DNA of 29,089 nt from Candidatus Aenigmatarchaeota archaeon (GTDB lineage Archaea; Aenigmatarchaeota; Aenigmatarchaeia; QMZP01), in the NCBI GenBank assembly GCA_016202725.1, contig JACQOD010000055.1, positions 1 to 29,089 on the forward strand, in the 5' to 3' direction. The translations under genes and the position numbers were made by a program. Below are positions 137 to 29,089 of the stretch, in pieces (the stretch's first letter is position 1; each line of letters opens with the position of its first letter). The notes below the pieces were generated by a model. That model saw only the letters and a list, made by a program, of their open reading frames with translations. It made no database searches and was not told the DNA's origin.

Positions 137-204
137 AGTGTGTATGCTTGCGCACTGGGGTATTAATGTTGCATCTCTTTTAAGCTGGCGCGCCAACCTT
201 CCCT

Positions 205-762
205 ATGGTCTTTGACCTCTTCACGCTGGTGGAAGGGTTCTGGTTCTTCCTCCCCGCCTACGGCGCCAATGGATTGGCCCCGCTGGTGAAGTACCTGCCT
301 GCGCGCCATCGCATGGACGGGGGACGGCAGTGGCGGGGCAAGCCCCTGCTGGGGGAGGGGAAGAGCTGGGAGGGCTTCGCCCTCGGCACGCTGGTGGCTA
401 TCCTGGTCTCGCTCATCCAGCTGGCGGCCTTCCCCTCCCTTCCCTGGAGCCTGTCGGAGCAGCAGGGGGTGACCCTCCACATCGCCCCGATGGGCCCCCT
501 ATTGGGCCTGCTGCTCGGCCTGGGCGCCATGGGGGCTGATGCCTTGAAGAGCATCGTGAAACGGCAGCTGCGCCTGGCGAGGGGATCGCCCCTCCCGCTG
601 GTGGACCAGGACGACTTCATCCTGGGGTCGTTCCTGCTGGCTGGCTTGCTGGTGCCCGCGGCACTGTCCTGGCTGGTCCTGTTCCTGGTGATCACCCCGG
701 CGGTCCACTTCGCCACCTGCTTCCTCGGCTTCCGCCTCGGGATCAAGAAAGAGCCGTGGTGA
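205..762 (+). CDS. carS: CDP-archaeol synthase (CDP-2,3-bis-(O-geranylgeranyl)-sn-glycerol synthase)
   Basis: PAYxAN, DGG...G.GKSWEG and D..KS..KR....RG..LPLVDQ.DF motifs; hydrophobic 185 aa. Confidence 0.9.
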   Translation: MVFDLFTLVEGFWFFLPAYGANGLAPLVKYLPARHRMDGGRQWRGKPLLGEGKSWEGFALGTLVAILVSLIQLAAFPSLPWSLSEQQGVTLHIAPMGPLLGLLLGLGAMGADALKSIVKRQLRLARGSPLPLVDQDDFILGSFLLAGLLVPAALSWLVLFLVITPAVHFATCFLGFRLGIKKEPW

Positions 763-814
763 GCGGTCGCCGTTTCCTGCGACCGGGAAGCGCTTTGTCA
801 GGCACGTCCCGCCT

Positions 815-1600
815 TCACGTCGCTGGTCCCTCTAGCACGGCCTTCTGCTGCTCGCCCCGCTTCCGGCGGAGCAGCCTCCTCCCCGGGAGGCGGACCTTTC
901 GGCGGCGCTGCCGGGGGGCCTGCGGCTCGGGGAGGGCGGGGCGGACCTTGTCCCAGACCAGCTCTGCAATCGTTTGGGGAGGGAGCATGCGCCCGCTCCA
1001 GACGCACTCCACCATCTGCCATCCCTCGGACCTGGCGAGGTCCATGTAGGCATGCTCCGCTGCACGGAGGTGGGCGGTGTCCTGCTCGTGGATGTCCCTC
1101 TTCTTCCCGCGCAGGTGCTTGCGGGGCGGCTTTTTCCCCACCAGCAGCCGCCCGATCTCGGGAGGCACCTTCAGGAGAATCGTCACGTCCGGCTTGGGGA
1201 TGCCCAGCTTGCCGTACTCCAGGTCCTTGATCCACTGGACCACCCTGCCCCTCTCCTTGAGGTCGGGGATCTTCGCCCCCTGGTGGGCGAGGCTGGCGGA
1301 CACGTACCTATTCGAGACTACAATGTCCCCCGCCCCCAGCCACTTCCTGAGCTGGTCGCGGGAGGCCAGGCGGTCCATCGCGAAGCACACTGCAGCAGCA
1401 TAGGGCCCCACCTGCTGGGCCGTTCCCCATTCCCCCCGGAGGTATTTCTCGACGAAGGCCGCGGACCACCGCCCGTACTGGGGAAAATCCGCCTGCCGGA
1501 CGCGGTAGCCGTGCTGGCGCAGCCGCTGCGCCAGGAGGTGGGCCTGGGTGGCCTTCCCCGAACCGTCAATGCCTTCCAGCACGATCAGCTTGCCGCGCAT
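815..1600 (-). CDS. tmk: Thymidylate kinase with basic C-terminal extension
   Basis: IVLEGIDGSGKATQ P-loop, FAMDR, NRY..S.LA.QG and PKPDVTILL motifs. Confidence 0.93.
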   Translation of the reverse strand: MRGKLIVLEGIDGSGKATQAHLLAQRLRQHGYRVRQADFPQYGRWSAAFVEKYLRGEWGTAQQVGPYAAAVCFAMDRLASRDQLRKWLGAGDIVVSNRYVSASLAHQGAKIPDLKERGRVVQWIKDLEYGKLGIPKPDVTILLKVPPEIGRLLVGKKPPRKHLRGKKRDIHEQDTAHLRAAEHAYMDLARSEGWQMVECVWSGRMLPPQTIAELVWDKVRPALPEPQAPRQRRRKVRLPGRRLLRRKRGEQQKAVLEGPAT

Positions 1601-2810: not shown

Positions 2811-3569
2811 ATGGCTCCCTTCTTGGCTGCTGCGCTTAAATGTTGCAGGGGGTCGGCTGGCAGAATCCGGCATCTCCTGCCGGGAGAATGCGCGGCTCGA
2901 CTCATCCTGCGCGAATGCTACCCCTTCCCGCGGCAGCGGCGGCGCATCCGCCCTGCGCGGGAGGACGACCTCCTTCTTCAGGGCGCGTCCGCGGTCCCTT
3001 CCCCGGCTTTCCTCCCGGCCCCCGCCGCCCCTCGGGACAGCTCCCCATGCCCGCATGAGCGCGTCCAGCTGCCGCTGCAGCTGCGGGAGGGAGCCGTCGT
3101 TCCGCAGGAAGGCGTTCCCCATGGCGAAGGTTTTCGGGAACTGGAACTGCTGCTCCTCCCGGCGGTCCTGCTCCCGGAAGGCTTCCCAGCTGGCAGGCCG
3201 GTCGCGCGGGCGCTGGCGGAGCCGTTCATACCTGACCCGCTCGCTGGCCTCCACGACCAGCAGCCTGGCCTGGGGGAACGCTTTCCTGGTCAGCTGCCAC
3301 TCCTCCGGCCGCCGGAGGGAGCCTATCAGGACCCGGTCAGGCCTGCGGGCCCTGATTTCCTGCAGGATCCGCTCCGCGGTGAAGGTGGGGCCGCGTTCCT
3401 GCCGGAGGGCGCGTTTCTCCTCCCGGATTTCTGGCCTGCCCAGCTCCCGCAGGATCTGCCCCAGGATCTGGGAATGGTCCAGCAGGGTGAAACCATACCG
3501 CGCGCAAAGGTAGCGGGCGACCACGTCCTTGCCCGACCCGATCTCGCCGGTCACGCCCACGATCAGCAT
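2811..3569 (-). CDS. Dephospho-CoA-kinase-like P-loop kinase domain; no stop codon before adk (whole ORF 1566..3569)
   Basis: IVGVTGEIGSGKD, LRRPEE, R.ERL..R and LRNDGSL motifs of the COG0237-like family, followed by about 70 aa of low-complexity read-through. Confidence 0.75.
2835..2841 (-). promoter_or_regulatory. TATA-like box for adk-ndk inside the upstream ORF
   Basis: ATTTAAG 25-31 bp upstream of the adk ATG, in GC-rich context. Confidence 0.45.
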
Positions 3570-12237: not shown

Positions 12238-13218
12238 ATGGAGTTCCGGCGGCGGGTGCGCACCCTCCAGGGCCTGCTCGAAGCCAAGCGGCTGCCAGGC
12301 ACCCTGCTGTCCCATCCCCACGATGTTTTCTACTACACCGGCTACCCTGCAGGGACCGACGACCATCCCCTCGCCCTCATCCCCGCCGCAGGGAAGCCCG
12401 TGCTGCTGCTGTCGGCCCTGGCAGTCCCTATCCGCGCGTACGGGCAGGTCCTCACGGACGGGAAGGCCTTCTCCAGGCACCTCCCCCGGCGGGTGGGGAT
12501 CGACGAAACCTCCCTGTCCGTGGCATCCTTCCTCTCCCTGCGGAAGCGCACGCGCCCCGTGCCTGCGGGGGAGCTCATCAAGCGCCCCCGCCAGGTGAAG
12601 GACGCTAGCGAGCTGGCGTGCATGCGCGCGGCTGTCCGCGTGGACCGCACTGTCTTCCGCAGCCTGCGGCTGGAGGGGACCGAGCAGGAGGTTGCCCGCC
12701 GCATCCGGGAGGCCTTCCACGCCCGGGGGGCGGAGGAAGCGTATGAAGCCATCGTGGCCACCGGCAGGAACGCGGGCACCTCCATCCACCACGTCCCCAC
12801 CGCAGCCCGGCTCTCCCGGCAGGCCACCACGATCGTGGATGCGGGAGCCTCCCTGGGGGGCTACAGCACGGACGTCACCCGCACCTTCTGGGACTCCAGC
12901 AACAGGGTCCAGCAGGACCTTGCGGACACGGTCAAGGCCCTCCAGGAGGAATGCATCTCCCGGGTGGCCCCTGGCGTGAAATTCTCCTCCCTGGACGCGT
13001 TCTACAAGCGGGAGCTGGGGAAGCGCGGCTTCACGGTCCGGCACGGGCTGGGCCACGGGATCGGGATCTTCGTGCACGAGCCTGCCGAGAAGCTGGAGAA
13101 GGGCATGGTCATCACCATCGAGCCCGGGATCTACACCGGCAGCATGGGCTGCCGGATCGAGGACATGGTCCTGGTGACCCGCTCCGGCAGGGAAGTGCTC
13201 ACGCGCAGCGTGCGGTGA
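12238..13218 (+). CDS. Xaa-Pro aminopeptidase/prolidase (M24B)
   Basis: VDAGA...Y.TD.TRT, HGLGHGIG..VHE.., TIEPGIY, RIED motifs. Confidence 0.9.
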   Translation: MEFRRRVRTLQGLLEAKRLPGTLLSHPHDVFYYTGYPAGTDDHPLALIPAAGKPVLLLSALAVPIRAYGQVLTDGKAFSRHLPRRVGIDETSLSVASFLSLRKRTRPVPAGELIKRPRQVKDASELACMRAAVRVDRTVFRSLRLEGTEQEVARRIREAFHARGAEEAYEAIVATGRNAGTSIHHVPTAARLSRQATTIVDAGASLGGYSTDVTRTFWDSSNRVQQDLADTVKALQEECISRVAPGVKFSSLDAFYKRELGKRGFTVRHGLGHGIGIFVHEPAEKLEKGMVITIEPGIYTGSMGCRIEDMVLVTRSGREVLTRSVR

Positions 13219-13338
13219 GCAGACAGAAAACCTTCTCCAGGCGGGAGCAAGGATGTGCAGAGAAAGGCCTTTCTCTGCACGTCTCATGGAGAATTCACCA
13301 CAGGGCCGCGCTGCCGCTGGATTCCTGGCAAGCAGAAT

Positions 13339-13638
13339 TTACTCCTCTTCCTTGGTGGGCTCGGGCCCTTCCGTTCCCTCGGCCACGGGCGCCGCGAAGT
13401 GCTTGATAAGCACGATGTCCCCGATGGCCCTGACCATGGGGTAGGGGATGATGATTCCCTTCTTCCTGCCCAGCATCTCCGAGAGGTAGGAACCCTTCGC
13501 GGCCTTGACCACGAGGGACCGCATCTTGAAGCGCTTGAGGTCGCACTCGATGTCCTCCACCTTGCCGCAGTAGAGGCCCTTGTCGGTGAAGACGTCCTTC
13601 ATCCACGTCTCGGACACCGAAGAAACCTGGATACCCAT
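13339..13638 (-). CDS. PRC-barrel domain protein
   Basis: KDVFTDKG...GKVED..., IIPY.MVRAIGDIVLI. Confidence 0.85.
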   Translation of the reverse strand: MGIQVSSVSETWMKDVFTDKGLYCGKVEDIECDLKRFKMRSLVVKAAKGSYLSEMLGRKKGIIIPYPMVRAIGDIVLIKHFAAPVAEGTEGPEPTKEEE

Positions 13639-13804
13639 TGAGCAGTCACCAATTGCATCTTAATGGGGGGTTATCTTTATAAACCTTTTCGGGATGCGCG
13701 TTCTTCCCCCTGTTTTCCGCGAGGGGATGTTCCCGGTCTATCGTTTCTTCGCGCCCCCCATGCGAATAAAAGGCCCAGCCACAATAGTGGTATGCTGGGA
13801 ACAA

Positions 13805-13922
13805 GCTGGGATATGGTATCCCCACCCATGGGCCGAACGGCAAGGCGCAGATTCCTTTGGAAGCGCAAGATTGCTAATCCTGTGGGCGCAAGCCCTTGAG
13901 AGTTCGAATCTCTCTCCCAGCG
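13805..13922 (+). tRNA. tRNA-Ser(GCU) with two 18-nt introns (8/9: 13813-13830; 29/30: 13851-13868)
   Basis: Mature: GCTGGGA TG GCCGAACGGCAAGGC G CAGGA TTGCTAA TCCTG T GGGC GCAA GCCC TT GAGAG TTCGAAT CTCTC TCCCAGC G. Both introns form BHBs (TGGG/CCCA; GCGC/GCGC). Confidence 0.93.
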
Positions 13923-14132
13923 CTTCCTTCACGGCTAGGCCTTGGTCCGCTACACACGGCATTCCGGCAAGAAATAGGCGCTGCCATGATCGAGCCCGAT
14001 GAGTCCGTGCTGTGCCAATCATTCGAAGGCCGGGCTGCTCTCTTCCGCTGCGCAGCCGGAAGCGCAAGCTCTACGCCGCCGTAGTATGAGCCTCCGCGAC
14101 CCCGTAGCGGGCTCTGCGCTGCGCAGTGGAAT

Positions 14133-14507
14133 TCATGCTTCCTCGAGGCGGATTCTCCGGATGCCGAGGCGGTCATAGACCGCGTCTGAAGAAATGAGCG
14201 TGTCATTGCATGCGCTCGCCGCATGGAGCGCATCGAAGACGTTCGCCTGTTTCTCCTTGATGAACGAGGCTGCGAGCAGGACCGTCCGGACGTCGATGCC
14301 GCGGATGTCCGCCAGTTCAGCGACGGCTGCGATGATCCGCTCCGGGTCGAGGCCGAAGCGGTCGCAGAGCAGCAGCAATTCAATGCAGGTGGCCATCCCC
14401 GTCCACAGGGATCCCTTGTACCGCTGGAGCAGGCGCTCTGCGCGGCGCTTGAGCCAGTCGGACTCCTTGATCAGCGCAAGGAAGAAGTCCGTGTCCGCGT
14501 ATGGCGT
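14133..14507 (-). CDS. vapC: PIN-domain (VapC-like) toxin; no ATG at the expected start (ACG)
   Basis: YADTDFFLAL...E...FDALHAA...SSD.VYD. The codon two before Tyr is ACG, behind AGGAGGT. Confidence 0.75.
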   Translation of the reverse strand, partial: TPYADTDFFLALIKESDWLKRRAERLLQRYKGSLWTGMATCIELLLLCDRFGLDPERIIAAVAELADIRGIDVRTVLLAASFIKEKQANVFDALHAASACNDTLISSDAVYDRLGIRRIRLEEA

Positions 14508-14734
14508 AGGACCTCCTTCCTTGCTTCCTTGCGGATCTCCTCGCGCAGCTTGGCCGCGGGGACATCGGGAAGCTTGCGTCCCTCCTCCCGCAGGTCGGCG
14601 AGGGGGTGGCGGGGCACGGGCACGAGCAGGACCCGGCCGGGTCCGGGAATGACGTAGTAGCTGTCCCCGTACCGGTCCCGAATGGGCCGCCGCAGGAGGA
14701 GGCGTCCCTTGGCATCGCATCTCACTGGGTGCAT
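14471..14734 (-). CDS. AbrB/MazE-type antitoxin
   Basis: V.CDAKGRL.L...IR.RYG N-terminus; overlaps the PIN gene; TATA at about 14755-14763. Start could be 14734 or 14740. Confidence 0.75.
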   Translation of the reverse strand: MHPVRCDAKGRLLLRRPIRDRYGDSYYVIPGPGRVLLVPVPRHPLADLREEGRKLPDVPAAKLREEIRKEARKEVLRHTRTRTSSLR

Positions 14735-14968
14735 GCACATATCGTGGTGGGATTCTTTATAAGCTTTACCCACTTTCATTCCATCTTTCCCACGTTCGCT
14801 TCAGGGAGCACTTCGATCGGGGGCCGGAGCCAGGTTTTTAAAAGCATGCAGCAAGCATTCCTCCCGGCTGTAGCCGGAGGATGCATTGCTGCCCTGTGGG
14901 AATTCCCCAACGCCAACGCCCTGCCAGCAGGAGCACTGGACGCTCAGCTGATAACCAACGAACCAATT

Positions 14969-15072
14969 GTACGTGTTTAACTGCACAACGCGTGCTATCG
15001 GTTTCCAAAAAGGAGGGAACAATGAAATCAGCAGCAATAGGACTTGTGGTGTGCAATGAGCTAAACACGTAC
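14969..15072 (+). mobile_element. MITE family 1 copy A (104 bp, 14-bp TIR, 8-bp TSD AACCAATT)
   Basis: GTACGTGTTTAACT...AGCTAAACACGTAC; AACCAATT at 14961-68 and 15073-80. Confidence 0.93.
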
Positions 15073-15104
15073 AACCAATTTAATCCCGGACACCCAGATT
15101 CGAT

Positions 15105-15467
15105 ATGCCCAGCGACGCCGAGATCCTGGAAGAATCCGCCCGGAAGGGGGACATCAAGTCCCTGGTCATCACCATGATCATGTCTGCCCTGGGCTTCCTG
15201 GTGGCCCTGCAATGGCGGGACGCGATCCAGGAGACCATCGACGCCTGGGTGCCCCAGGGGGAGGGGCTCTTCTGGACCTACGTCGCCGCGCTGCTGGTCA
15301 CCATCGGCGCCGCGGCGGCCGCGATCATCCTGGTCAGGCTGAAGCAGGCCAACCTCCTGCCCGAGGAGAAGCTTATCGGGCGCGCCCGCCGCATGCGGCA
15401 CCAGGAGGCCATGCGCCAGCGGGCGAAGCAGCTCGAGCAGGAAGCGAAAGAAGGCGCGCCAGCCTGA
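15105..15467 (+). CDS. DUF5654 family membrane protein
   Basis: ..SALGFLVALQW.DAI......L...YVAALLVT pattern; 2 TM. Confidence 0.75.
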   Translation: MPSDAEILEESARKGDIKSLVITMIMSALGFLVALQWRDAIQETIDAWVPQGEGLFWTYVAALLVTIGAAAAAIILVRLKQANLLPEEKLIGRARRMRHQEAMRQRAKQLEQEAKEGAPA

Positions 15468-15468
15468 A

Positions 15469-15554
15469 TGCGACCGCCGGGATTTGAACCCGGGTCACCG
15501 GCTTGGGAAGCCGAGATCCTGTCGTGCCCGAAGGAACCACTAGACTACGGTCGC
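15469..15554 (-). tRNA. tRNA-Gly(CCC) with a 15-nt D-loop intron (15521-15535)
   Basis: Acceptor GCGACCG/CGGTCGC, anticodon CCC at 15505-07. Removing TCCTTCGGGCACGAC (UUCG hairpin, relaxed BHB) restores GTCTAGTGGTAGGAT. Confidence 0.93.
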
Positions 15555-15613
15555 GCTACCGTGCTCTTGGCAGGCCGGGTTAATAAACGAGCAGAAAAGG
15601 GTAAAGAAAAAAG

Positions 15614-15710
15614 GTGCGTGTGCAGCTCGTTGCACATCGCTGGCTCTCCGCTGATGTCATTGTTCCCTCTTTTGGAAACGATAGCATGCGTTGTGCAGCT
15701 ACACACGCAC
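15614..15710 (-). mobile_element. MITE family 1 copy B (97 bp, TSD GAAAAAAG)
   Basis: TIR GTGCGTGTG(C/T)AGCT; GAAAAAAG at 15606-13 and 15711-18; core shared with copy A. Confidence 0.92.
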
Positions 15711-15725
15711 GAAAAAAGGAAGGCC

Positions 15726-15866
15726 TCAGTTGGCCCGCTGCTTCAGCTCCCTGATGCGCTCGGCGACGCCCTGGGATTCCTTGTCCAGCTCGTCCTTGTA
15801 CTCTTCGAGCATCTTGACCTTTTCTTCGCGCGTCAGGAACGACCGGGTCCCGCAACAACCGTCCAT
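15726..15866 (-). CDS. Small coiled-coil protein (DUF5320-like)
   Basis: 46 aa, CCG.R.FLT.EEK..MLEEY..EL.KE..GV.ERI..L; GGTGA RBS. Confidence 0.65.
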   Translation of the reverse strand: MDGCCGTRSFLTREEKVKMLEEYKDELDKESQGVAERIRELKQRAN

Positions 15867-15987
15867 GTCCTTCACCCCCTTGCCATCATATCGGATGTAC
15901 GATATATGGGGGCCGGGATTTATATACTTATCGGGCATCCGATAAGAAGGCGCGGGCTTTTTATTCCCGGCCTCCCAAGAGGGAATC

Positions 15988-16287
15988 ATGGGGAGAAGGG
16001 ACGAATGCTGCGACATGCGGGGGATGCTCTCCTTCCTGATCCTCTTCCTCCTCTCCAAGAAGGCCATGCACGGCCAGGAGATCGCCGAGGAGCTGGAGCA
16101 GCGGAAGGGCATCCGGCCGAGCCCGGGGACCATTTACCCCGCCCTGAAGGCCCTGAAGGAAGCGGGCTTCATCCGCGAGCAGAAGCAGGGGAAAACCATC
16201 CTCTACCGCCTGACCCCGCAGGGTGAGCGGGCCCTCAAAGCCTCGAAGGAACGGTTCTGCAAGATGTTCGTCGGGGTCTACTCCTGA
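15988..16287 (+). CDS. PadR family transcriptional regulator
   Basis: MHGQEI..E......PSPGTIYPALK.L.E.G.I...Y.LT..G. Confidence 0.92.
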   Translation: MGRRDECCDMRGMLSFLILFLLSKKAMHGQEIAEELEQRKGIRPSPGTIYPALKALKEAGFIREQKQGKTILYRLTPQGERALKASKERFCKMFVGVYS

Positions 16288-16388
16288 GGAGTCGGGGGGT
16301 GTGCTGGCCGCGCCGAAGGGCCCGGTGCGCGCCCCACGGCGCGGGGGTGAGTGGCGGGGCGCATGCGCACGCCGCCTCCTGCGCCCCC

Positions 16389-17201
16389 CTACGGGATGTC
16401 CGTGGGGTCCCAGGAGGTGCGGAAGCCTTCGTCCCAGGCGCGCATCTCCCGGAGATCCTGCTCCCGCAAGGAGAAGTCGAACACGGCGGCGTTCTCCCGG
16501 ATGCGGTCCTCCCGGACCGACTTCGGGATGGCCACCAGCCTGTTCTCCAGGGCCCAGCGGACCAGGACCTGGGCAGGGGTCTTCCCCAGCCTGCTGGCGA
16601 GTGCGGCCAGCCGCGGGTCGCTGAACTTCCTCCCCTTGGTGAGGGGGGAGTAGGCCTCCACCTGGATCCCCTGCTTCCTGCAGAAGGCCCTGAGGTCCTC
16701 CTGCGCCAGGAAGGGGGAGAGCTCGACCTGGTTCACGGCGGGGGCCTGCCCACCTGCAGCCAGGAGCTGCTGCAGGTGGCGGATGGTGAAGTTGCTCACG
16801 CCGATAGAGCGGATCTTCCCCTCCCGCTGGAGGCGCTCCAGAATCTTCCAGGTGGCCAGCCGTTCCGGCACGGGCCAGTGGATGAGGAAGAGGTCGATGC
16901 AGTCCACGCCGAGCAGCCTCCGGCTGGTCTCAACGGCCTTCGCCGGGTCGTCGTGGTGGTCGTTGTGGATCTTGGTGGTGAGGAACACGTCCTCCCGGGG
17001 GATGCCGCTCTCCCGCAGGGCCTTGCCGACGTCCTGCTCGTTGCGGTAGTAGGCTGCGGTGTCGATGTGCCGGTAGCCTGCCGCCAGGGCCGCGCGCACC
17101 GCTGCCCGCGTGGCCGGACCCGGCGGGGCCTGGTAGGTGCCCAGGCCGAGCCAGGGCATGGTGATGCCGTCCCTGAGCCTGGCCGCGGAGCGGAGGTCCA
17201 T
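16389..17201 (-). CDS. Aldo/keto reductase
   Basis: GLGTY, GYRHIDTA.YY.NE..VG, FLTTK, DLFLIHWP, IGVSNF, NQVE, IPKS motifs. Confidence 0.95.
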   Translation of the reverse strand: MDLRSAARLRDGITMPWLGLGTYQAPPGPATRAAVRAALAAGYRHIDTAAYYRNEQDVGKALRESGIPREDVFLTTKIHNDHHDDPAKAVETSRRLLGVDCIDLFLIHWPVPERLATWKILERLQREGKIRSIGVSNFTIRHLQQLLAAGGQAPAVNQVELSPFLAQEDLRAFCRKQGIQVEAYSPLTKGRKFSDPRLAALASRLGKTPAQVLVRWALENRLVAIPKSVREDRIRENAAVFDFSLREQDLREMRAWDEGFRTSWDPTDIP

Positions 17202-17291
17202 GCCTGCTCTTGGGAGGCGGGAGTAAAAGCCTTTCACCCGGGTCGAAGCTGGCGCTTGTTCATCCCACAGGGCCTAACGTATTCGCAGGAG

Positions 17292-17395
17292 GCATGTGTG
17301 TAGCCCATTGCCCGCCGCAGGTTCTCTTGCTTCTGATTTCATTGTTCCCTCCGTGTTGGAAACCGATAGCATGCGTCTGGCAGCTAAACACGCAC
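17292..17395 (-). mobile_element. MITE family 1 copy C (104 bp, no TSD)
   Basis: Same TIRs and GCTATCGGTTTCC..GGAGGGAACAATG core; flanks CGCAGGAG / AAACCTCC differ. Confidence 0.88.
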
Positions 17396-17411
17396 AAACC
17401 TCCCACCACCC

Positions 17412-17846
17412 TCACCGGTCGTGGTGGCGGTCCTTGCTGCGGATGTGGGGTATGCGCGGGACGACCACCGCATAGGCCGTGGCGCCCAGGGCGATGAGGT
17501 ACCATTCGAAGCCGATGGCCATGCCGATGGCCGCGGAGAACCAGATGTTCGCCGCGGTGGTGAGGTTGCGGATCTCCCCGTCCCGCTGCTGGAGGATGAT
17601 TCCTGCTCCGAGGAAGCCGATGCCGCTCACGATCTGGGCGGCGATGCGCGCCGGGGAGAGGGGGTCGATGATCGTGGACAGCAGGGTGAAGAGGAACGAG
17701 CCCCCGATCACGAAGCAGTGGGTGGAGATCCCCGCGGCCTTGCCCCGGGTTTCCCGCTCCACGCCGATGGCGAAGCCCGCGATGACCGAGACCACCAGGC
17801 CCGCGAGGAACTGGACCTCGTACCCGGAGAGCAGGTTGACGGCCAT
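17412..17846 (-). CDS. MgtC/SapB family membrane protein
   Basis: IG.ERE...K.AG..TH, RIAAQIVSGIGFLGAG, LTTAA.IW motifs. Confidence 0.93.
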   Translation of the reverse strand: MAVNLLSGYEVQFLAGLVVSVIAGFAIGVERETRGKAAGISTHCFVIGGSFLFTLLSTIIDPLSPARIAAQIVSGIGFLGAGIILQQRDGEIRNLTTAANIWFSAAIGMAIGFEWYLIALGATAYAVVVPRIPHIRSKDRHHDR

Positions 17847-17934
17847 TATTTTCTTGTGGGCGCGCGTCCTAATAAAGCGGGGGGTGTCGAGGTCCTGCTG
17901 CGGAGGATCCCTGTTGCCCTGCTGCACCGCCAGC

Positions 17935-18171
17935 GTGGGCGGGCAGCTCACCCATGCCCTGCCGGCCGCAGCGGGTCCCGCTTTGGGCAGGACCTAACGT
18001 CAGCGGCGAAAACAATCGTCACCACCCGAAACAACGCTCATCCCTCTCCTCTCGTCAAGCGCATTGGGCCGACCTTGCTCAGTAGGTCACCGCAAGACGT
18101 TGTGTCGATTATTTTGGCCCGGTACGTTAGCATGCATCGCCAAGAAGCCTCCTCACCAGCTACCCACGCAC
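17935..18171 (-). mobile_element. MITE family 1 subfamily E copy H, interrupted by a nested element; TSD CC(G/A)CCAGC
   Basis: Both halves align to 19454-19563; CCGCCAGC at 17927-34 and CCACCAGC at 18172-79; 104 bp after removing the insert. Confidence 0.85.
17997..18127. mobile_element. Nested 131-bp inverted-repeat element with TA duplication (IS630/Tc1-mariner-like MITE)
   Basis: About 22-bp imperfect TIR (ACGTCAGCGGCGAAAACAATCG / CGATTATTTTGGCCCGGTACGT); TA at 17995-96 and 18128-29. Confidence 0.7.
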
Positions 18172-18207
18172 CCACCAGCAATTAAAATCCCCGCGCCCAG
18201 AAAGGGC

Positions 18208-18630
18208 ATGCAGACCAAGAACCTCACCCAGCAGGTGGAGATCCCCGCCGCGCCGCACGAGGTGTTCGAGATGCTGCTCGATCCCGAGCGGCACAGCCGC
18301 TTCACGGGCGCGCACGCCGCCATCTCCCGCCGCGTAGGCTCCCCCTTCACCGCCTACGATGGCTGGATCGAGGGCGTCCAGATGGAGGTGGTCAAGGACC
18401 GGCTGATCGTCCAGAAGTGGCGGGGCAAGGACTGGCCGAAAGGGCACTATTCCATCGCCACGTTCACCCTCGCTCCCTCGGGGGCGGGGACGAGGATCAC
18501 CCTCACCCAGAGGGGCATCCCCGCCGGCCTCTTCGAGGGCATCAGCGCCGGCTGGCATGAGCACTACTGGGACAAGATGCAGAAGTCCCTGGACATCGAC
18601 CGCAGGCTCTGGGGAGCGCGCTCCCGCTAG
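18208..18630 (+). CDS. SRPBCC/AHSA1-like domain protein
   Basis: I.A.P.EVF..L.D...HS.FTG, FT.YDG.I.G, IVQKWR..DWP.G, GW.E.YW motifs. Confidence 0.9.
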   Translation: MQTKNLTQQVEIPAAPHEVFEMLLDPERHSRFTGAHAAISRRVGSPFTAYDGWIEGVQMEVVKDRLIVQKWRGKDWPKGHYSIATFTLAPSGAGTRITLTQRGIPAGLFEGISAGWHEHYWDKMQKSLDIDRRLWGARSR

Positions 18631-18663
18631 CGGGAAAGAAAATGAAAAGGGAAAAAGGAATCC

Positions 18664-19056
18664 CTATTGCTTCTTGGGGATGGTTTCCCAGATCCCGATG
18701 ACGTTGCCCTCGGAGTCCGTGACGCGGGCGTAGTACCCCATATCCATCACGGTCATCTTGGGCATGACGATCCTGCCGCCGGCCTTCTGGACCTTCTTGA
18801 GGGTCGAGTCCAGGGACGGGACGTTGATGACGACCACCGGGCTCTCGCCGGGAGCCTGCCGGGGCATGATGCCGCCGTTGATCGCTCCGGCCTCCTTGGG
18901 CATGCGGGTCTTCTTGTCCACCTCAACGGTGGAGACCATCCAGTAAGGCATGGCCCCGGGGGCCTTCTCGATCTTCCACCCGAACAGGTCCTGGTAGAAC
19001 TTGCGGGCGCGGTCAGGCTTGTCGGCAGGGATCTCGAAATGCACAACCTTGTCCAT
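18664..19056 (-). CDS. VOC/glyoxalase family protein
   Basis: VVHFEIPAD..DRA..FY..LFGW, INGG, V..AGG.I.MP, D.EGNVIG.WE. Confidence 0.93.
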   Translation of the reverse strand: MDKVVHFEIPADKPDRARKFYQDLFGWKIEKAPGAMPYWMVSTVEVDKKTRMPKEAGAINGGIMPRQAPGESPVVVINVPSLDSTLKKVQKAGGRIVMPKMTVMDMGYYARVTDSEGNVIGIWETIPKKQ

Positions 19057-19264
19057 AGTACCTCCCTGCTATCCGAGGGGAGAACGGGCATAAATACCTT
19101 CCGGCAGGACCACGCCGCCAGGGCCGGTAGCTCATCTCCATGAAGCGTGTTCTCCTTCAGCGCCGTTTGCGACGTCGTGGGTGCAATGCGATTCCGTGAA
19201 TGACCGTGTCCGCGAGCCCCCTACGGGGCCTGCAGGCACTATTGGCGCCCCGCAATGATAGGCG

Positions 19265-19368
19265 GTACGTGTTTAGCTGCCAAACGCATGCTATCGGTTT
19301 CCAACAAGGAGGGAACAATGAGATCACATGCAAGAGAACCTGCGGTGTTCGATGAGCTAAACACATAC
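19265..19368 (+). mobile_element. MITE family 1 copy D (104 bp, TSD GATAGGCG)
   Basis: GTACGTGTTTAGCT...AGCTAAACACATAC; GATAGGCG at 19257-64 and 19369-76. Confidence 0.93.
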
Positions 19369-19453
19369 GATAGGCGCATTGGCGAAGACGGGCATGGCTG
19401 CCGCGAAGGATCTGCGCCATTCATTCCCCAAGCTCTTGGCAGGCGAAGAGGGC

Positions 19454-19563
19454 GTATATGTTTAGCTGGTGAGAAGGTTTCTTGGCGATGCATGCTGGGT
19501 GGCAATCCTGCCAAGAAATGGAAACGCTGCGACAGACAAGGCGTGGCTGAGCTACACCCATAC
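19454..19563 (+). mobile_element. MITE family 1 subfamily E (110 bp, degenerate TSD)
   Basis: GTATATGTTTAGCT...AGCTACACCCATAC; flanks AAGAGGGC / CAGAGGGG; interior homologous to copy H. Confidence 0.82.
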
Positions 19564-19805
19564 CAGAGGGGAAAGGCCGCCGTCGGAGCCAGAATGGCGT
19601 CAGATGCAACAGGTAGCTGTTACGTGACAGGTAGCATCACAGTTCACGGAAGAGGTAGGCGCGCAATTATCAGGTCAGCGGGCAACAGCCGCTGCCTGCT
19701 CTCCTGCAGACCTCCAAGGACCGGAGGGGGGATGCATTTCCTGCCCCCGCCAGGCTGCGCCTCCCCTCCAGGCGAATCTTTATAAGGAATGGAAAATAAT
19801 ATTCC

Positions 19806-20039
19806 ATGGTGAGAAATATGGAAAAGACAAGATTGGAGAAGGAGGGGAGGGTATTCATCCCCAAGAAGGTCAGGGAACGGCTCGGCATGCGCAGCGGTGA
19901 AGAGATGCTCATTGAAGAGAGGGATGGGGCACTCATCCTCCGGAAGCGAAAGTCCCCCGAGGAGTTCTCTTCCCAGCTCAAGGGCTGCGTGAAGGGCGGG
20001 GGGAATCCGCTGGACCTCAAGAAGATGTGGAGGATGTGA
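19806..20039 (+). CDS. AbrB/MazE-type antitoxin
   Basis: GRVFIPKKVRERLGM..GE...IEE.DG.L.L. Confidence 0.9.
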   Translation: MVRNMEKTRLEKEGRVFIPKKVRERLGMRSGEEMLIEERDGALILRKRKSPEEFSSQLKGCVKGGGNPLDLKKMWRM

Positions 20040-20447
20040 ATGCTCTTCGTGGACAGCAACATCTGGTGTTATTACTTTGACGCCGCGGCGAAAGAGCACG
20101 CCAAGGTCGCGCAGTTCATTGGCCGGACCATCGGGAAGGAGGAGATGGTCCTGAACACGGTCGTCGCGATGGAGATTGCGCAGTACCTCATCAAGAATCT
20201 CGGCCCCGTGCGGGGGAGGGAGAAGATGGATGCCCTGCTCGGGTTCCCTTTTACCATCACGGATTTCGATTACGACCTCCTCCTCAGGTCGGTCCAGGAA
20301 CTCGCCACGCACGCGCATGCGGGGATTGGCGGGCGGGACGCAACCATCCTCGCTTCCATGCGCGCCCTCGGCGTCCGGCGCATCGCCACCCATGATCGGG
20401 CCTTCCAGAGGGTGGATGGGATTGAGGTCGTGGACCCTTGCGCGTGA
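20040..20447 (+). CDS. vapC: PIN-domain (VapC-like) toxin
   Basis: FVDSNIW, V..E, DATILA.M, IATHD..F motifs; abuts the antitoxin stop. Confidence 0.9.
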   Translation: MLFVDSNIWCYYFDAAAKEHAKVAQFIGRTIGKEEMVLNTVVAMEIAQYLIKNLGPVRGREKMDALLGFPFTITDFDYDLLLRSVQELATHAHAGIGGRDATILASMRALGVRRIATHDRAFQRVDGIEVVDPCA

Positions 20448-20458
20448 GTGGATGCCTC

Positions 20459-20641
20459 GTATGTGTTTAGGTACCCTCAATATGCTCGCTGTGTATCGAT
20501 TTCCCCGGATGCGAGCCGAAACACGTCAAAAAGGTCATGTGGCCTAAGTATGCCGATTTTCAATGTAACTGATTCGCAGAGTGGAAGAATTGCCAAAAGT
20601 GTGTGTCCAACTGCTAACGGTTAGACGAGCTAAACACATAC
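20459..20641 (+). mobile_element. MITE family 1 long subfamily F (183 bp, no TSD)
   Basis: GTATGTGTTTAG...CTAAACACATAC terminal inverted repeats; left end matches the reconstructed element at 28886. Confidence 0.75.
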
Positions 20642-20756
20642 GCGGCACGTAGTGCGGCAATGCAGGCAATAATAGCAAGGGGTTGTGGAGCCAAGACCTA
20701 TGGACACCCAATCTCTCCTGTGGTCCTGCGAGCACGGGGCGCATTGGCATGCCGCT

Positions 20757-22190
20757 TCAGTACGCCCGCGCGAAGCAGGCCTGCTGGCCGCTGTTGCCGC
20801 AGACCACGCAAGCTCCCGCAGGAGGCTGGAAGGGGATGACCCGGATGTCTGTCCCGGTCTGGTCCTTGACCTGCTCCTCGCAGGCCTTGTTCCCGCACCA
20901 GCCTGCAAGGATGAAGCCCTTCTCCTTCTCCGCGAGCCTGCCCAGCTCCTTCAGGGTGGCCGCAGGGCGGGTGTTGGCCTCGAGGAAGGACGTGGCCTTG
21001 CGGAAGAGCGCGGCCTGGATGTCTTCCAGTAGGGCGGGTACCACGGTGCCCAGGGCATCCCATTTCACGGGCTGCTTCTGCATGCTGTCCCGGCGGACCA
21101 GGATGGCCTGCTGCTGCTCGAGGTCCTTGGGGCCTATTTCAAGCCTGACCGGCACGCCCTTCAGCTCCCACTCGTTGAACTTCCACCCCGGGGAATAGCC
21201 CTCCCGGTCATCCAGCTGGACCCGGATGCCGAGCTTCTCGAGCTTGCCCTGGAGGTGTTTGGCTTCCTTGAGGACGCTGTCCTTGCTCGCGTCCTGAAAG
21301 ATCGGGACGACCACGACCTGGATGGGCGCGATCCTCGGCGGCAGGACCAGTCCCCGGTCGTCCCCGTGGACCATGATCACCGCGCCGATCGTGCGGGTGG
21401 ACACCCCCCAGGAGGTCTGCCAGGCGTGCTGGCGCTTCTGGGCCTGGTCCAGGAAGGTGATGCCGAAGGCCTTCGCGAAGTTCTGGCCCAGCTGGTGGGA
21501 GGTGCCCATCTGCAGGGCCTTGCCGTCGGGCATGAGGGCTTCCAGGGTCGTGGTGTAGACTGCTCCTGCAAATTTCTCCTTGTCCGACTTCCTCCCGGTG
21601 AGGACGGGGATGGCGAGATAGTCTTCCATGAGCGTGCGGTAGCTCTCCAGGATGCTGCGGACCTCCCGGTCAGCTTCTCCCTCCGTGGCATGGACCGTAT
21701 GCCCTTCCTGCCAGAGGAACTCGCACGTGCGCAAGAACAATTTGGTCATCTTGATCTCCGCCCGGAAGACCGAGTTCCAGTAGTTGTAGAGGAGGGGCAG
21801 GTCCCGCCAGGAGCGGATCCACTTCGCGTAGGCGTCGTAGACCACCGTTTCCGAGGTCGGCCGCAAGATCAGCCGCTCCTCCAGGGGCTGGGTGCCGGCC
21901 TGGGTGACCACGAACAGCTCGGGAGAGAAGCCCTCCACGTGCTCCTGCTCCCGCTGGAGGAAACGCTCGGGTATCAGGGCCGGGGAGTAGGCGTTCTGGT
22001 GGCCCTGCGCCTTCAGGAGGCTGTCCAGGGCGGCCTGGATGAGCTCCCAGATGCCGTACCCGTAGGGCTTGATGAACATGAACCCCTTCACCGAGGAGAA
22101 GTCTGCGAGACCGGCCTTCAGGGTGACCTCGTTGTACCACTCGGAGAAATCCTTGCCCTTCGGGACCGTGATCCCCTGCTGGTCGGACAT
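20757..22190 (-). CDS. proS: Proline--tRNA ligase (archaeal/eukaryotic type)
   Basis: FSEWY, RPTSET, FLRT.EFLWQEGHT, QTSWG.STR and C-terminal ARAY. Confidence 0.97.
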   Translation of the reverse strand: MSDQQGITVPKGKDFSEWYNEVTLKAGLADFSSVKGFMFIKPYGYGIWELIQAALDSLLKAQGHQNAYSPALIPERFLQREQEHVEGFSPELFVVTQAGTQPLEERLILRPTSETVVYDAYAKWIRSWRDLPLLYNYWNSVFRAEIKMTKLFLRTCEFLWQEGHTVHATEGEADREVRSILESYRTLMEDYLAIPVLTGRKSDKEKFAGAVYTTTLEALMPDGKALQMGTSHQLGQNFAKAFGITFLDQAQKRQHAWQTSWGVSTRTIGAVIMVHGDDRGLVLPPRIAPIQVVVVPIFQDASKDSVLKEAKHLQGKLEKLGIRVQLDDREGYSPGWKFNEWELKGVPVRLEIGPKDLEQQQAILVRRDSMQKQPVKWDALGTVVPALLEDIQAALFRKATSFLEANTRPAATLKELGRLAEKEKGFILAGWCGNKACEEQVKDQTGTDIRVIPFQPPAGACVVCGNSGQQACFARAY

Positions 22191-22256
22191 ACCCCTTTCT
22201 TGGGAGGCGTTCTTTTTAAAGCGGGGGCGGGAAAAAACCGCTCGCCTGCGGGCCTG

Positions 22257-23240
22257 TTAAAGGGAGGCCTGGAGGGCCTGGAACGCCTGGGCAGCCTCCT
22301 GGGCCCGGGGAGGCTCCCGCCTGCCGGCCTCCTGGAAGGCCTGCGCTGCTGCTGCGCGCTTCCCGAGGCGGAAAAGGCAGGTCCCCCTCCCGAGGAGGAC
22401 CGGGAAGGAGGGCGGGAGCCTGAGATACTGGGCCAGGGCTTTGTCCCAGGCGCCCTCCCGGGCATACGCATAGGCCAGGTTCATCCTCGCTGGCTGGAAC
22501 CCTGGCTCCCGCAGGAGGGCTTGCTCGAAGGCAGCAGCCGCGGCCGCAGGATCCTGGCGGGTGAAGAGGAGGATGGTGCCCTTGTCGAACCAGGCCTTTG
22601 CCGTGGGGCGGTCCTGGAGTTCCTGCTCCAGGAGGGCGAGGTAGCGGAGCTCATCCTGCTGGATGGCGGCTTCCCCTTTGAGGGCCTTGAGATGGTGGAT
22701 TTCCAGCCCAGAGGGGATGGGTCGGATGCCCTGCCGCTCAAGGGATTCCTCCACGAGTTCGTGCACCCGGCGGGTGAACTCGATCCCGGGGAGGCGGCGG
22801 AAGAAGCGCACGCACGGGACCGGGAAGAAGCCGGGGAATCCATACTGCCGGCTGACCATATTGTTTGCGGGGACGAAGCGCGTCTGGCGGGTGTCCTTGG
22901 TGTAATTGAGTTGGTCCAGGAGGAAGGCCTTGCCTTCCCCTTGGGCGAGGGCGCGCAGGCGTTGCAGGCCTTCAGGGGCAAGGACCTCGTCCGCATCCAG
23001 GACCAGGATCCAGTCCTGGGTGGCCTCCCGGAGGGAGACGTTCCGCTGGCTCGCGAAATCCTGGAAGGGGTGTACCACCAGCGTGCACTGGAACTCGTCA
23101 GCGATACTGCGCAGGGCGGGGGTTTCCAGGTCCACGACCAGGATGCATTCCTCCACCCCTTCCCTGGCGTTCCGCAGGCAATTCCTGAGGAACGCTTCTT
23201 CCCCGTCCCGGACGATCATGCAGAGGCTGATGGTATTCAT
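22257..23240 (-). CDS. GT2 family glycosyltransferase with C-terminal TPR repeats
   Basis: ISLCMIVRD.E, DFA..RN, WILVLDADE, F...VHE motifs; TPR-like helices. Confidence 0.88.
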   Translation of the reverse strand: MNTISLCMIVRDGEEAFLRNCLRNAREGVEECILVVDLETPALRSIADEFQCTLVVHPFQDFASQRNVSLREATQDWILVLDADEVLAPEGLQRLRALAQGEGKAFLLDQLNYTKDTRQTRFVPANNMVSRQYGFPGFFPVPCVRFFRRLPGIEFTRRVHELVEESLERQGIRPIPSGLEIHHLKALKGEAAIQQDELRYLALLEQELQDRPTAKAWFDKGTILLFTRQDPAAAAAAFEQALLREPGFQPARMNLAYAYAREGAWDKALAQYLRLPPSFPVLLGRGTCLFRLGKRAAAAQAFQEAGRREPPRAQEAAQAFQALQASL

Positions 23241-28885: not shown

Positions 28886-29089
28886 GTACGTGTTTACGCC
28901 CCGCGCCGCCAGAACCCTGCGGGGCCTTGGCCCGCAGATGAATGGCGGCAAGCACTTCTGAGCGCGGGGCCGGGGTCGCGGGGATGGATCGCCATCACGG
29001 CCGCAGGAATGCTGTCCACTGGACGAGTTCAGTCGGCGTCGAACGCCCGCCGCTGTAGCGGCGGGTAGTTTACGTACCCTCAATATGCC
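28886..29089 (+). mobile_element. Family 1 subfamily F MITE (left part), interrupted and truncated by the window end
   Basis: Removing 28898-29073 gives GTACGTGTTTACGTACCCTCAATATGC, 25/27 identical to 20459-20485. Confidence 0.78.
28898..29073 (+). mobile_element. 176-bp IS200/IS605-like non-autonomous element (PATE / orphan TnpB right-end RNA candidate)
   Basis: Inserted 3' of TTTAC and ends in TTTAC; no TIRs; right end GAACGCCCGCCGCTGTAGCGGCGGGTAGTTTAC has a subterminal hairpin; strongly self-complementary interior. Confidence 0.65.

Follow-up and report, generated by a model that had tools for sequence, protein, structure and literature searches.

The question raised by this locus is what a dense set of short repeats is, and what has moved it. 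The locus is a 29,089-nt contig (JACQOD010000055.1 of assembly GCA_016202725.1, analysed whole and called the window here) from a metagenome-assembled genome (MAG) of Aenigmarchaeota, a DPANN lineage, recovered from a groundwater metagenome. Our analyses indicate that the repeats are very probably non-coding MITEs (miniature inverted-repeat transposable elements) that bear the 14-bp end found on an ISH10-like insertion sequence (IS) with a single gene, of the IS66 family (ISBst12 group). The observations that carry this assignment are the ends themselves, 8-bp duplications of the target, a paralogous site that is seen both filled and empty, and an autonomous partner in related archaea whose ends are identical to those of the MITEs. 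An initial annotation of the window had described a MITE family with 14-bp terminal inverted repeats (TIRs) and 8-bp target-site duplications, seven copies in 5.7 kb and one at 28886, and had suggested an IS66-like transposase as its possible mover. As detailed below, the first proposal is confirmed and the second supported.

The window elements, their duplications and their target sites

When up to two mismatches were allowed, the 14-bp end GTRYGTGTTTAGCT matched the window 12 times against 0.10 matches expected, a count that was reached in none of 100 dinucleotide-preserving shuffles. The matches pair as the inverted ends of short elements, and the coordinates of these elements agree with those of the initial annotation (Table 1). 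The elements are non-coding and measure 97 to 183 bp, or 262 to 280 bp where a nested insert is included. The sorting of their interiors into three types (A to D, E with H, and F with G) was correct. T1 is 104 bp long and is represented in the window by copies A to D and genome-wide by 25 full copies; copies F and G belong to T2, which measures 183 bp, and copies E and H to T3, at ∼107 to 128 bp. No relationship links the three interiors, and the 14-bp end is the sole feature that the types share. The fourth size class, of 262 to 280 bp, consists of T1 with a ∼175-nt hairpin-ended mini-element inserted right after the TTTAG of the MITE end.

All seven clustered copies are intergenic, lying among genes for PIN, DUF5654, PadR and aldo/keto reductase proteins and an intron-bearing tRNA, with MgtC, AHSA1 and glyoxalase genes and a VapBC pair also nearby; the gene annotation of the window thus agrees with the earlier statement that the copies stand between accessory genes. 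The 5.7-kb cluster is the densest in the assembly, with seven copies against 0.68 expected (Poisson probability 7.5e-6, or ∼1e-3 once corrected for the number of windows).

Table 1. Elements of the family in the window, inserts within them, and the autonomous partner element
Feature	Position	Strand	Description	Flanking duplication	Placement
A	14969..15072	+	T1 MITE, 104 bp	AACCAATT, 8/8, at 14961-14968 and 15073-15080	24 nt upstream of DUF5654 gene start (15105)
B	15614..15710	-	T1 MITE, 97 bp	GAAAAAAG, 8/8, at 15606-15613 and 15711-15718	Between tRNA (15469-15554) and small gene
C	17292..17395	-	T1 MITE, 104 bp; left end degenerate, GCATGTGTGTAGCC
H	17935..18171	-	Old T3 MITE, ends degenerate	CCGCCAGC/CCACCAGC, 7/8
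Insert in H	∼17997-18127		Unrelated 131-bp insert interrupting T3
D	19265..19368	+	T1 MITE, 104 bp	GATAGGCG, 8/8, at 19257-19264 and 19369-19376
E	19454..19563	+	T3 MITE, 110 bp	AAGAGGGC/CAGAGGGG, 6/8
F	20459..20641	-	T2 MITE, 183 bp		12 bp past VapC stop codon
G	28886..29089	+	T2-type MITE end, first 12 nt of TIR; cut by contig end
Insert in G	28898-29073		∼176-nt hairpin-ended mini-element splitting G at 28897/28898; T2 interior resumes after it
Partner (L011)	160-1527		1368 bp; perfect 14-bp TIR identical to MITE ends	AATCAAAG, 8/8	In genome G089

The MAG from which the window comes (G000, of which the window is the whole contig C27) comprises 984,961 bp in 115 contigs, with 63% GC and an estimated completeness of 75%; the host genome is roughly 1.3 Mb in size. 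The nearest proteins to the prolyl-tRNA synthetase encoded in the window (20757-22190, minus strand) are named Candidatus Aenigmarchaeota and share 65% identity with it. In this 0.985-Mb MAG the end occurs 147 times (at most two mismatches) and forms 42 inverted pairs, one of which, spanning 511 bp, joins two separate elements and was excluded, so that 41 remain; lone ends are numerous and lie mostly at contig ends. Profile searches detected 71 T1, 11 T2 and 24 T3 copies or fragments and about 12 composites, a total of about 118 copies or fragments (0.12 per kb, or ∼118 per assembled Mb). Of the MAG's 230 contig ends, 48 stop in or next to these repeats, which explains much of its fragmentation, and contig word depth, when summed across T1 interiors, rises to ∼740 to 890 in the best sequencing run versus ∼10 for unique sequence. 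An exact-end scan of 371 genomes of the phylum found 51 ends in G000 and 0 to 9 in each of the 370 others. Single relatives of the MITEs do occur elsewhere, namely a T3 copy, 87.5% identical and with a 7/8 duplication, in a genome (G323) from a different genus of this family, and a distant relative of T2 in a third genus (G012).

The flanks of the 41 paired elements, of which 40 were scorable, match at 8/8 positions in 18 and at ≥7/8 in 27. When the right flank was moved by 1 to 20 bases as a control, no pair scored above 6/8. The base that would be the ninth agrees in only 2 of the 27 best pairs, and the duplication is therefore exactly 8 bp long. For the window elements the flank comparison reproduces the earlier reading, with perfect duplications in A, B and D, 7/8 in H and 6/8 in E.

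A site that is filled in one copy of a repeat and empty in others is present within the MAG. On contig C39 a T1 element (3370-3473) lies inside an unrelated hairpin-ended mini-element. The 8-mer GTCGGCGT, or a one-base variant of it, is present once in eight uninterrupted copies of this mini-element and flanks T1 on both sides in C39. An empty-site comparison, which the initial annotation had proposed for related MAGs, here gives, for these paralogous copies, the single 8-mer expected of a duplication on insertion.

Empty sites were reconstructed for 31 elements and show a T at position −2 in 18 and an A at position +2 in 19, while T at position 1 of the duplication and A at position 8 each occur in just 1 of the 31. 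The AT content of the four bases outside each edge is 66%, versus 40% further out (p 1e-16). The target thus shows weak dyad symmetry, and the sites are AT-rich and intergenic. Because this AT-rich signal is symmetric and no more than 4 nt wide, it resembles the target preference of a transposase more than homing to TATA boxes.

T1 copies lie 2 to 25% from their consensus, with a median pairwise identity of 85%; the youngest by this measure, at 2 to 4%, have perfect duplications. In the window, D is 6% from the consensus and B, among the most diverged copies, 24%. The mirrored changes previously seen in both TIRs of B are real. Over the 41 pairs, however, the variant states of the two ends are uncorrelated (Fisher p 0.37 and 0.42), and this, together with the high divergence of B, means that chance suffices to account for them.

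The autonomous partner and its relatives

A TIR search for a long copy that encodes a transposase, another of the checks proposed initially, failed in the MAG itself, where the longest pair is the 511-bp one that spans two elements, and succeeded in a related genome. Among the 370 other genomes of the phylum, G089 has two exact ends 1368 bp apart, which bound the element L011 (Table 1). Its single open reading frame (ORF; 230-1516) encodes 429 amino acids and has its stop codon within the right end. The product scores 282 bits on NF033517 (the NCBIfam model of IS66 family transposases, cut-off 180) and 143 bits on PF03050 (Pfam DDE_Tnp_IS66), and residues D212, D262 and E377 and a CWAH motif are invariant in 30 relatives. 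The same ends and an 8/8 duplication thus bound an IS66-family transposase gene, in agreement with the mover suggested at the outset.

With the 30 relatives as query, 80 loci were fetched from metagenomes and 80 from species genomes. All 160 loci encode an IS66-family relative of the partner transposase, and about 120 are bounded by the same ends, in most cases identical and otherwise with one or two changes. These end-bounded elements have a single gene, measure 1.37 to 1.6 kb and show an 8/8 duplication in roughly a third of the cases with both flanks available. There are dozens of such 8/8 cases, and single-gene elements of 1.37 to 1.45 kb with these ends and duplications come both from metagenomes and from named genomes of Methanothrix, Hadarchaeota, Bathyarchaeota, Woesearchaeota and Pacearchaeota. 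Named hosts overall include Methanothrix, Methanotrichaceae, Hadarchaeota, Bathyarchaeota, Woesearchaeota, Pacearchaeota and Nanoarchaeota; variants of the end occur on elements of Thermoplasmatota and haloarchaea, with GTATTTGTTTAG ends seen on those of Thermoplasmatota. The transposases of this clade diverge to ∼44% identity, yet the ends are kept. Across the elements of Methanothrix, Hadarchaeota, Bathyarchaeota and DPANN the 14-bp end is identical despite this divergence.

One member of the clade was encountered repeatedly in public data. L108 (342-1895 of metagenome contig Ga0180009_10056383; 61% GC, 433-aa ORF) is present in near-identical form in numerous runs on groundwater, soil and lakes, which come from 13 or more studies, and is a very widely spread insertion sequence. 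It was not found in the window's own study, though it is present in many groundwater runs.

The MITEs resemble the partner beyond the bare TIR to differing degrees. They keep the asymmetry of its ends, AGCTG on the left and AGCTC on the right. The left end of T2 resembles, over ∼25 bp beyond the TIR, the right ends of Methanothrix-type elements, and T1 shows only a weak resemblance to the IS over ∼16 bases adjoining its right TIR. Apart from the short subterminal stretch of T2, none of the interiors significantly matches the ISH10-like elements sampled or their transposase genes. The earlier description of the repeats as deletion derivatives is therefore borne out only in part, by T2, with a weak resemblance in T1 and no detectable IS-derived interior in T3.

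In the mechanism we propose, a DDE transposase of the ISH10-like clade would recognise the 14-bp ends and cut the target with an 8-bp stagger, repair would duplicate the staggered 8 bp, and the MITEs would be mobilised in trans by such a partner-clade enzyme. The family has expanded to ∼118 copies per assembled Mb in a genome of ∼1.3 Mb. The repeats themselves are ordinary selfish DNA, notable only for their very high copy number and for the lack of a working transposase in the assembly.

Canonical IS66 elements carry tnpA-tnpB-tnpC in about 2.5 kb, have ends that read GTAAGCG, encode a DDE_Tnp_IS66 domain and generate an 8-bp duplication. The partner shares the DDE_Tnp_IS66 catalytic domain and the length of the duplication, but its 1368 bp leave no room for tnpA or tnpB, and its ends begin with GTAY, not the canonical GTAA. 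The best named match to its transposase in plasmid records, at 40% identity, is a copy of ISH10 in Halobacterium salinarum ("IS66-like element ISH10 family transposase"). This element likewise has a single transposase gene, an 8/8 duplication (CCGATCTA) and ends GTACGTGTTTAGCC and GTACGTGTTTACCC, the first of which shares 13/14 bases with the MITE consensus GTACGTGTTTAGCT. It differs in being an autonomous haloarchaeal element of 1584 bp, whereas the MITEs of the window are non-coding, 97 to 183 bp long and aenigmarchaeotal. In the ISBst12 group, ISDge4 of Deinococcus geothermalis has one ORF, a 14-bp TIR beginning with GTA and an 8-bp repeat (PMC12898284). The partner fits the pattern of this group in size and gene content, but the ends of ISDge4, GTAACTGCTCAGCA, share only 9/14 bases, and ISBst12-group elements are bacterial and autonomous. 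By its ends and its 8-bp footprint, and in its mode of operation, the family groups with the MITEs of ISH10-like single-gene IS66 members.

Points against the assignment and alternative explanations

Several observations weigh against the assignment. Two of the clustered elements lack a direct duplication. The flanks of C, CGCAGGAG and AAACCTCC, agree at 0/8 positions, and those of F agree at 3/8 and form an inverted repeat that lengthens that of the ends to 18 nt. In the sister species G001, the spacer orthologous to B's site lacks a MITE and has one A-rich stretch that resembles the 8-mer, but the adjacent tRNA is inverted in that species and the site is rearranged, poly-A rich and of low complexity, so that this empty site is suggestive only. 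In the same species the site of A falls in an indel of 1.2 kb and no match was obtained for the remaining five, the counterpart region being split over two contigs by a synteny break. Among the T1 copies compared there is no identical pair. In protein and profile searches, neither the MAG nor 46 other genomes from its family yielded an intact transposase of the clade; because the MAG is only 75% complete, this absence is not proven. The MAG does contain an IS66-family relic, the C-terminal ∼90 codons of a gene on contig C102 (60-337, within locus L024 at 1-337), which belongs to a different lineage and has the end GTAACTACTCACCT. A search of the MAG for its missing half by means of its 8-mer was negative. 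A check for polymorphic insertions was likewise negative, since the contigs of four runs from the source study include none that skips a MITE. Finally, the T1 and T3 interiors gave no significant nhmmer match to ∼170 sampled IS copies (E values above 0.01).

Two side observations concern the C102 relic: its end resembles an ISDge4-type end, and a T1 MITE truncates the relic where the contig begins.

The first alternative differs from our assignment solely in denying continued activity. The repeats would be IS66-type MITEs whose transposase has become extinct in this lineage, leaving copies that are immobile and decaying, and we give this an even chance. Transposases are seen only as relics in G000 and its family; in G315, of the same family, an exact end is followed by a decayed stretch for the N-terminal 85 residues. 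The lack of identical T1 pairs, the median pairwise identity of T1 and the decayed ends and duplications of C, H and F fit such a swarm, as does the lack of insertion polymorphism in the contigs of the four runs. Against it, the MAG is incomplete and binning usually loses multi-copy insertion sequences, many contig ends stop in these repeats, and the youngest T1 copies retain perfect duplications close to the consensus. Logan unitigs break at the MITEs, with no joint that skips one, but Logan contigs drop rare variants, and the missing polymorphism is thus weak evidence. With only relics and no MITE-skipping contig to go by, the swarm would be an orphan in decay, or else a transposase in DNA outside the assembled bins would drive it, and the two appear about equally probable.

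A second alternative leaves the mover as it is and concerns the origin of the interiors. T1 and T3 may be unrelated DNA that gained two 14-bp ends, by chimeric or de novo birth, and not deletion derivatives of an insertion sequence. The failure of both interiors to match the ∼170 IS copies beyond the ends, with T2 alone having an IS-derived subterminal stretch, is what such a birth would leave. On the other hand, the direct parent may be unsampled in a clade whose transposases diverge as far as this one while keeping their ends, the AGCTG/AGCTC asymmetry of the IS is kept in both T1 and T3, and the right end of T1 is like that of the IS over ∼22 bp. We regard an origin of this kind as possible, though the less probable of the two for these interiors.

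The remaining alternatives fare considerably worse. A swarm without a transposase of its own, moved by an ISH10-like enzyme that a plasmid, a virus or the archaeal host of the DPANN cell would supply, seems unlikely. It is conceivable in so far as the end, kept despite the divergence of the transposases, could let any member of the clade cross-mobilise these copies. A transposase of another family that makes 8-bp duplications (IS1595, ISL3, IS256, IS6 or IS1) is a highly improbable mover. It is a matter of general knowledge that the length of the duplication alone does not discriminate between families, but all long elements found with these ends encode an IS66-family transposase, and none of the other 8-bp-duplicating families named in the initial annotation lies between these ends among the fetched loci. 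The idea that the repeats encode structured RNAs, or are regulatory palindromes that recombination has spread, to which the strict 104-bp length of T1 and its conserved GGAGG...ATG stretch might point, is the least credible of all in view of the flanking duplications, the copy inserted inside another repeat, the ends identical to those of an insertion sequence, the three unrelated interiors and the lack of any match to a known RNA in Rfam and tRNA scans.

Neighbouring repeats, synteny and copy number in context

Other repeats are interleaved with the MITEs. The ∼175-nt mini-element that splits G has no inverted ends, starts with GCCCCGCGCC and ends in a GC hairpin followed by TAGTTTAC. Besides the window copy (28898-29073), copies lie in the MAG on contigs C6 (1221-1405), C9 (8657-8827) and C77 (8526-8705), and there are about 20 more. 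The mini-element is always directly 3′ of TTTAG or TTTAC. Of 25 near-full copies, 15 are inside an IS66-type MITE end, after base 12, a share far above that of the TTTAG/TTTAC motifs located there. In a quick tree, the copies in composites scatter among the solo copies with weak support, and this interspersion may point to repeated, independent insertion of the mini-element more than to spread of the composites as a unit. It looks like a derivative of an IS200/IS605-type element that prefers the MITE end as its target.

A second repeat family, of about 130 to 190 bp and at least 25 copies, adjoins element A. It begins with TTTAAAAGCATGCAGCA and occupies 14836-14966 of the window; other copies are at 4295-4483 of contig C25, where the repeat interrupts a T1 copy, and at 9013-9148 of C11. 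The summed contig depth over 14717-14933 of the window is 382, versus ∼10 for unique sequence. This repeat was considered as an empty site for A and proved uninformative, the window copy being truncated there. The 131-bp insert of H, labelled initially as a TA-duplicating element, is unrelated to this repeat, and its excision restores the collinearity of T3.

Rfam identifies tRNAs at 18-136 (119 nt) and 15469-15554 (86 nt) of the window that were missed by ARAGORN, which is consistent with introns; intron-like tRNAs of this kind fit an archaeal DPANN host. The second of them is the tRNA that is inverted in G001, a species in which a single T1 fragment is present, at a contig end. The break in synteny with that species coincides with the MITE cluster (window 13000-22500 versus contigs C15, 26949-29376, and C10, 145628-150622, of G001). 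The window from 13.0 to 16.3 kb corresponds to one G001 contig and that from 18.3 to 22.2 kb to another, and the stretch between them (16.3-18.3 kb, with the aldo/keto reductase and MgtC genes) has no counterpart in G001.

The abundance of the family can be set beside a published census of archaeal MITEs (Nucleic Acids Research 2024, PMC11602168), in which DPANN genomes are the densest among archaea, with 146 MITEs per Mb in Altiarchaeum and 105 per Mb in a Woesearchaeon. The paper nowhere mentions IS66, and its MITEs are not assigned to that family. The present family alone, with ∼118 copies per assembled Mb, brings a reduced genome to the upper end of the reported archaeal range. We found no paper that describes archaeal MITEs derived from IS66, and none that treats MITEs of Aenigmarchaeota.

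The repeats reveal no new kind of mobile element. What the analysis provides is a name for the missing partner of an abundant DPANN repeat family, an ISH10-like element of the IS66 family, and the recognition that a very wide clade of archaeal insertion sequences has kept one and the same 14-bp end. The combination of high density with no intact transposase makes this genome a useful case for studying the birth and death of MITE bursts in symbiont-sized genomes.

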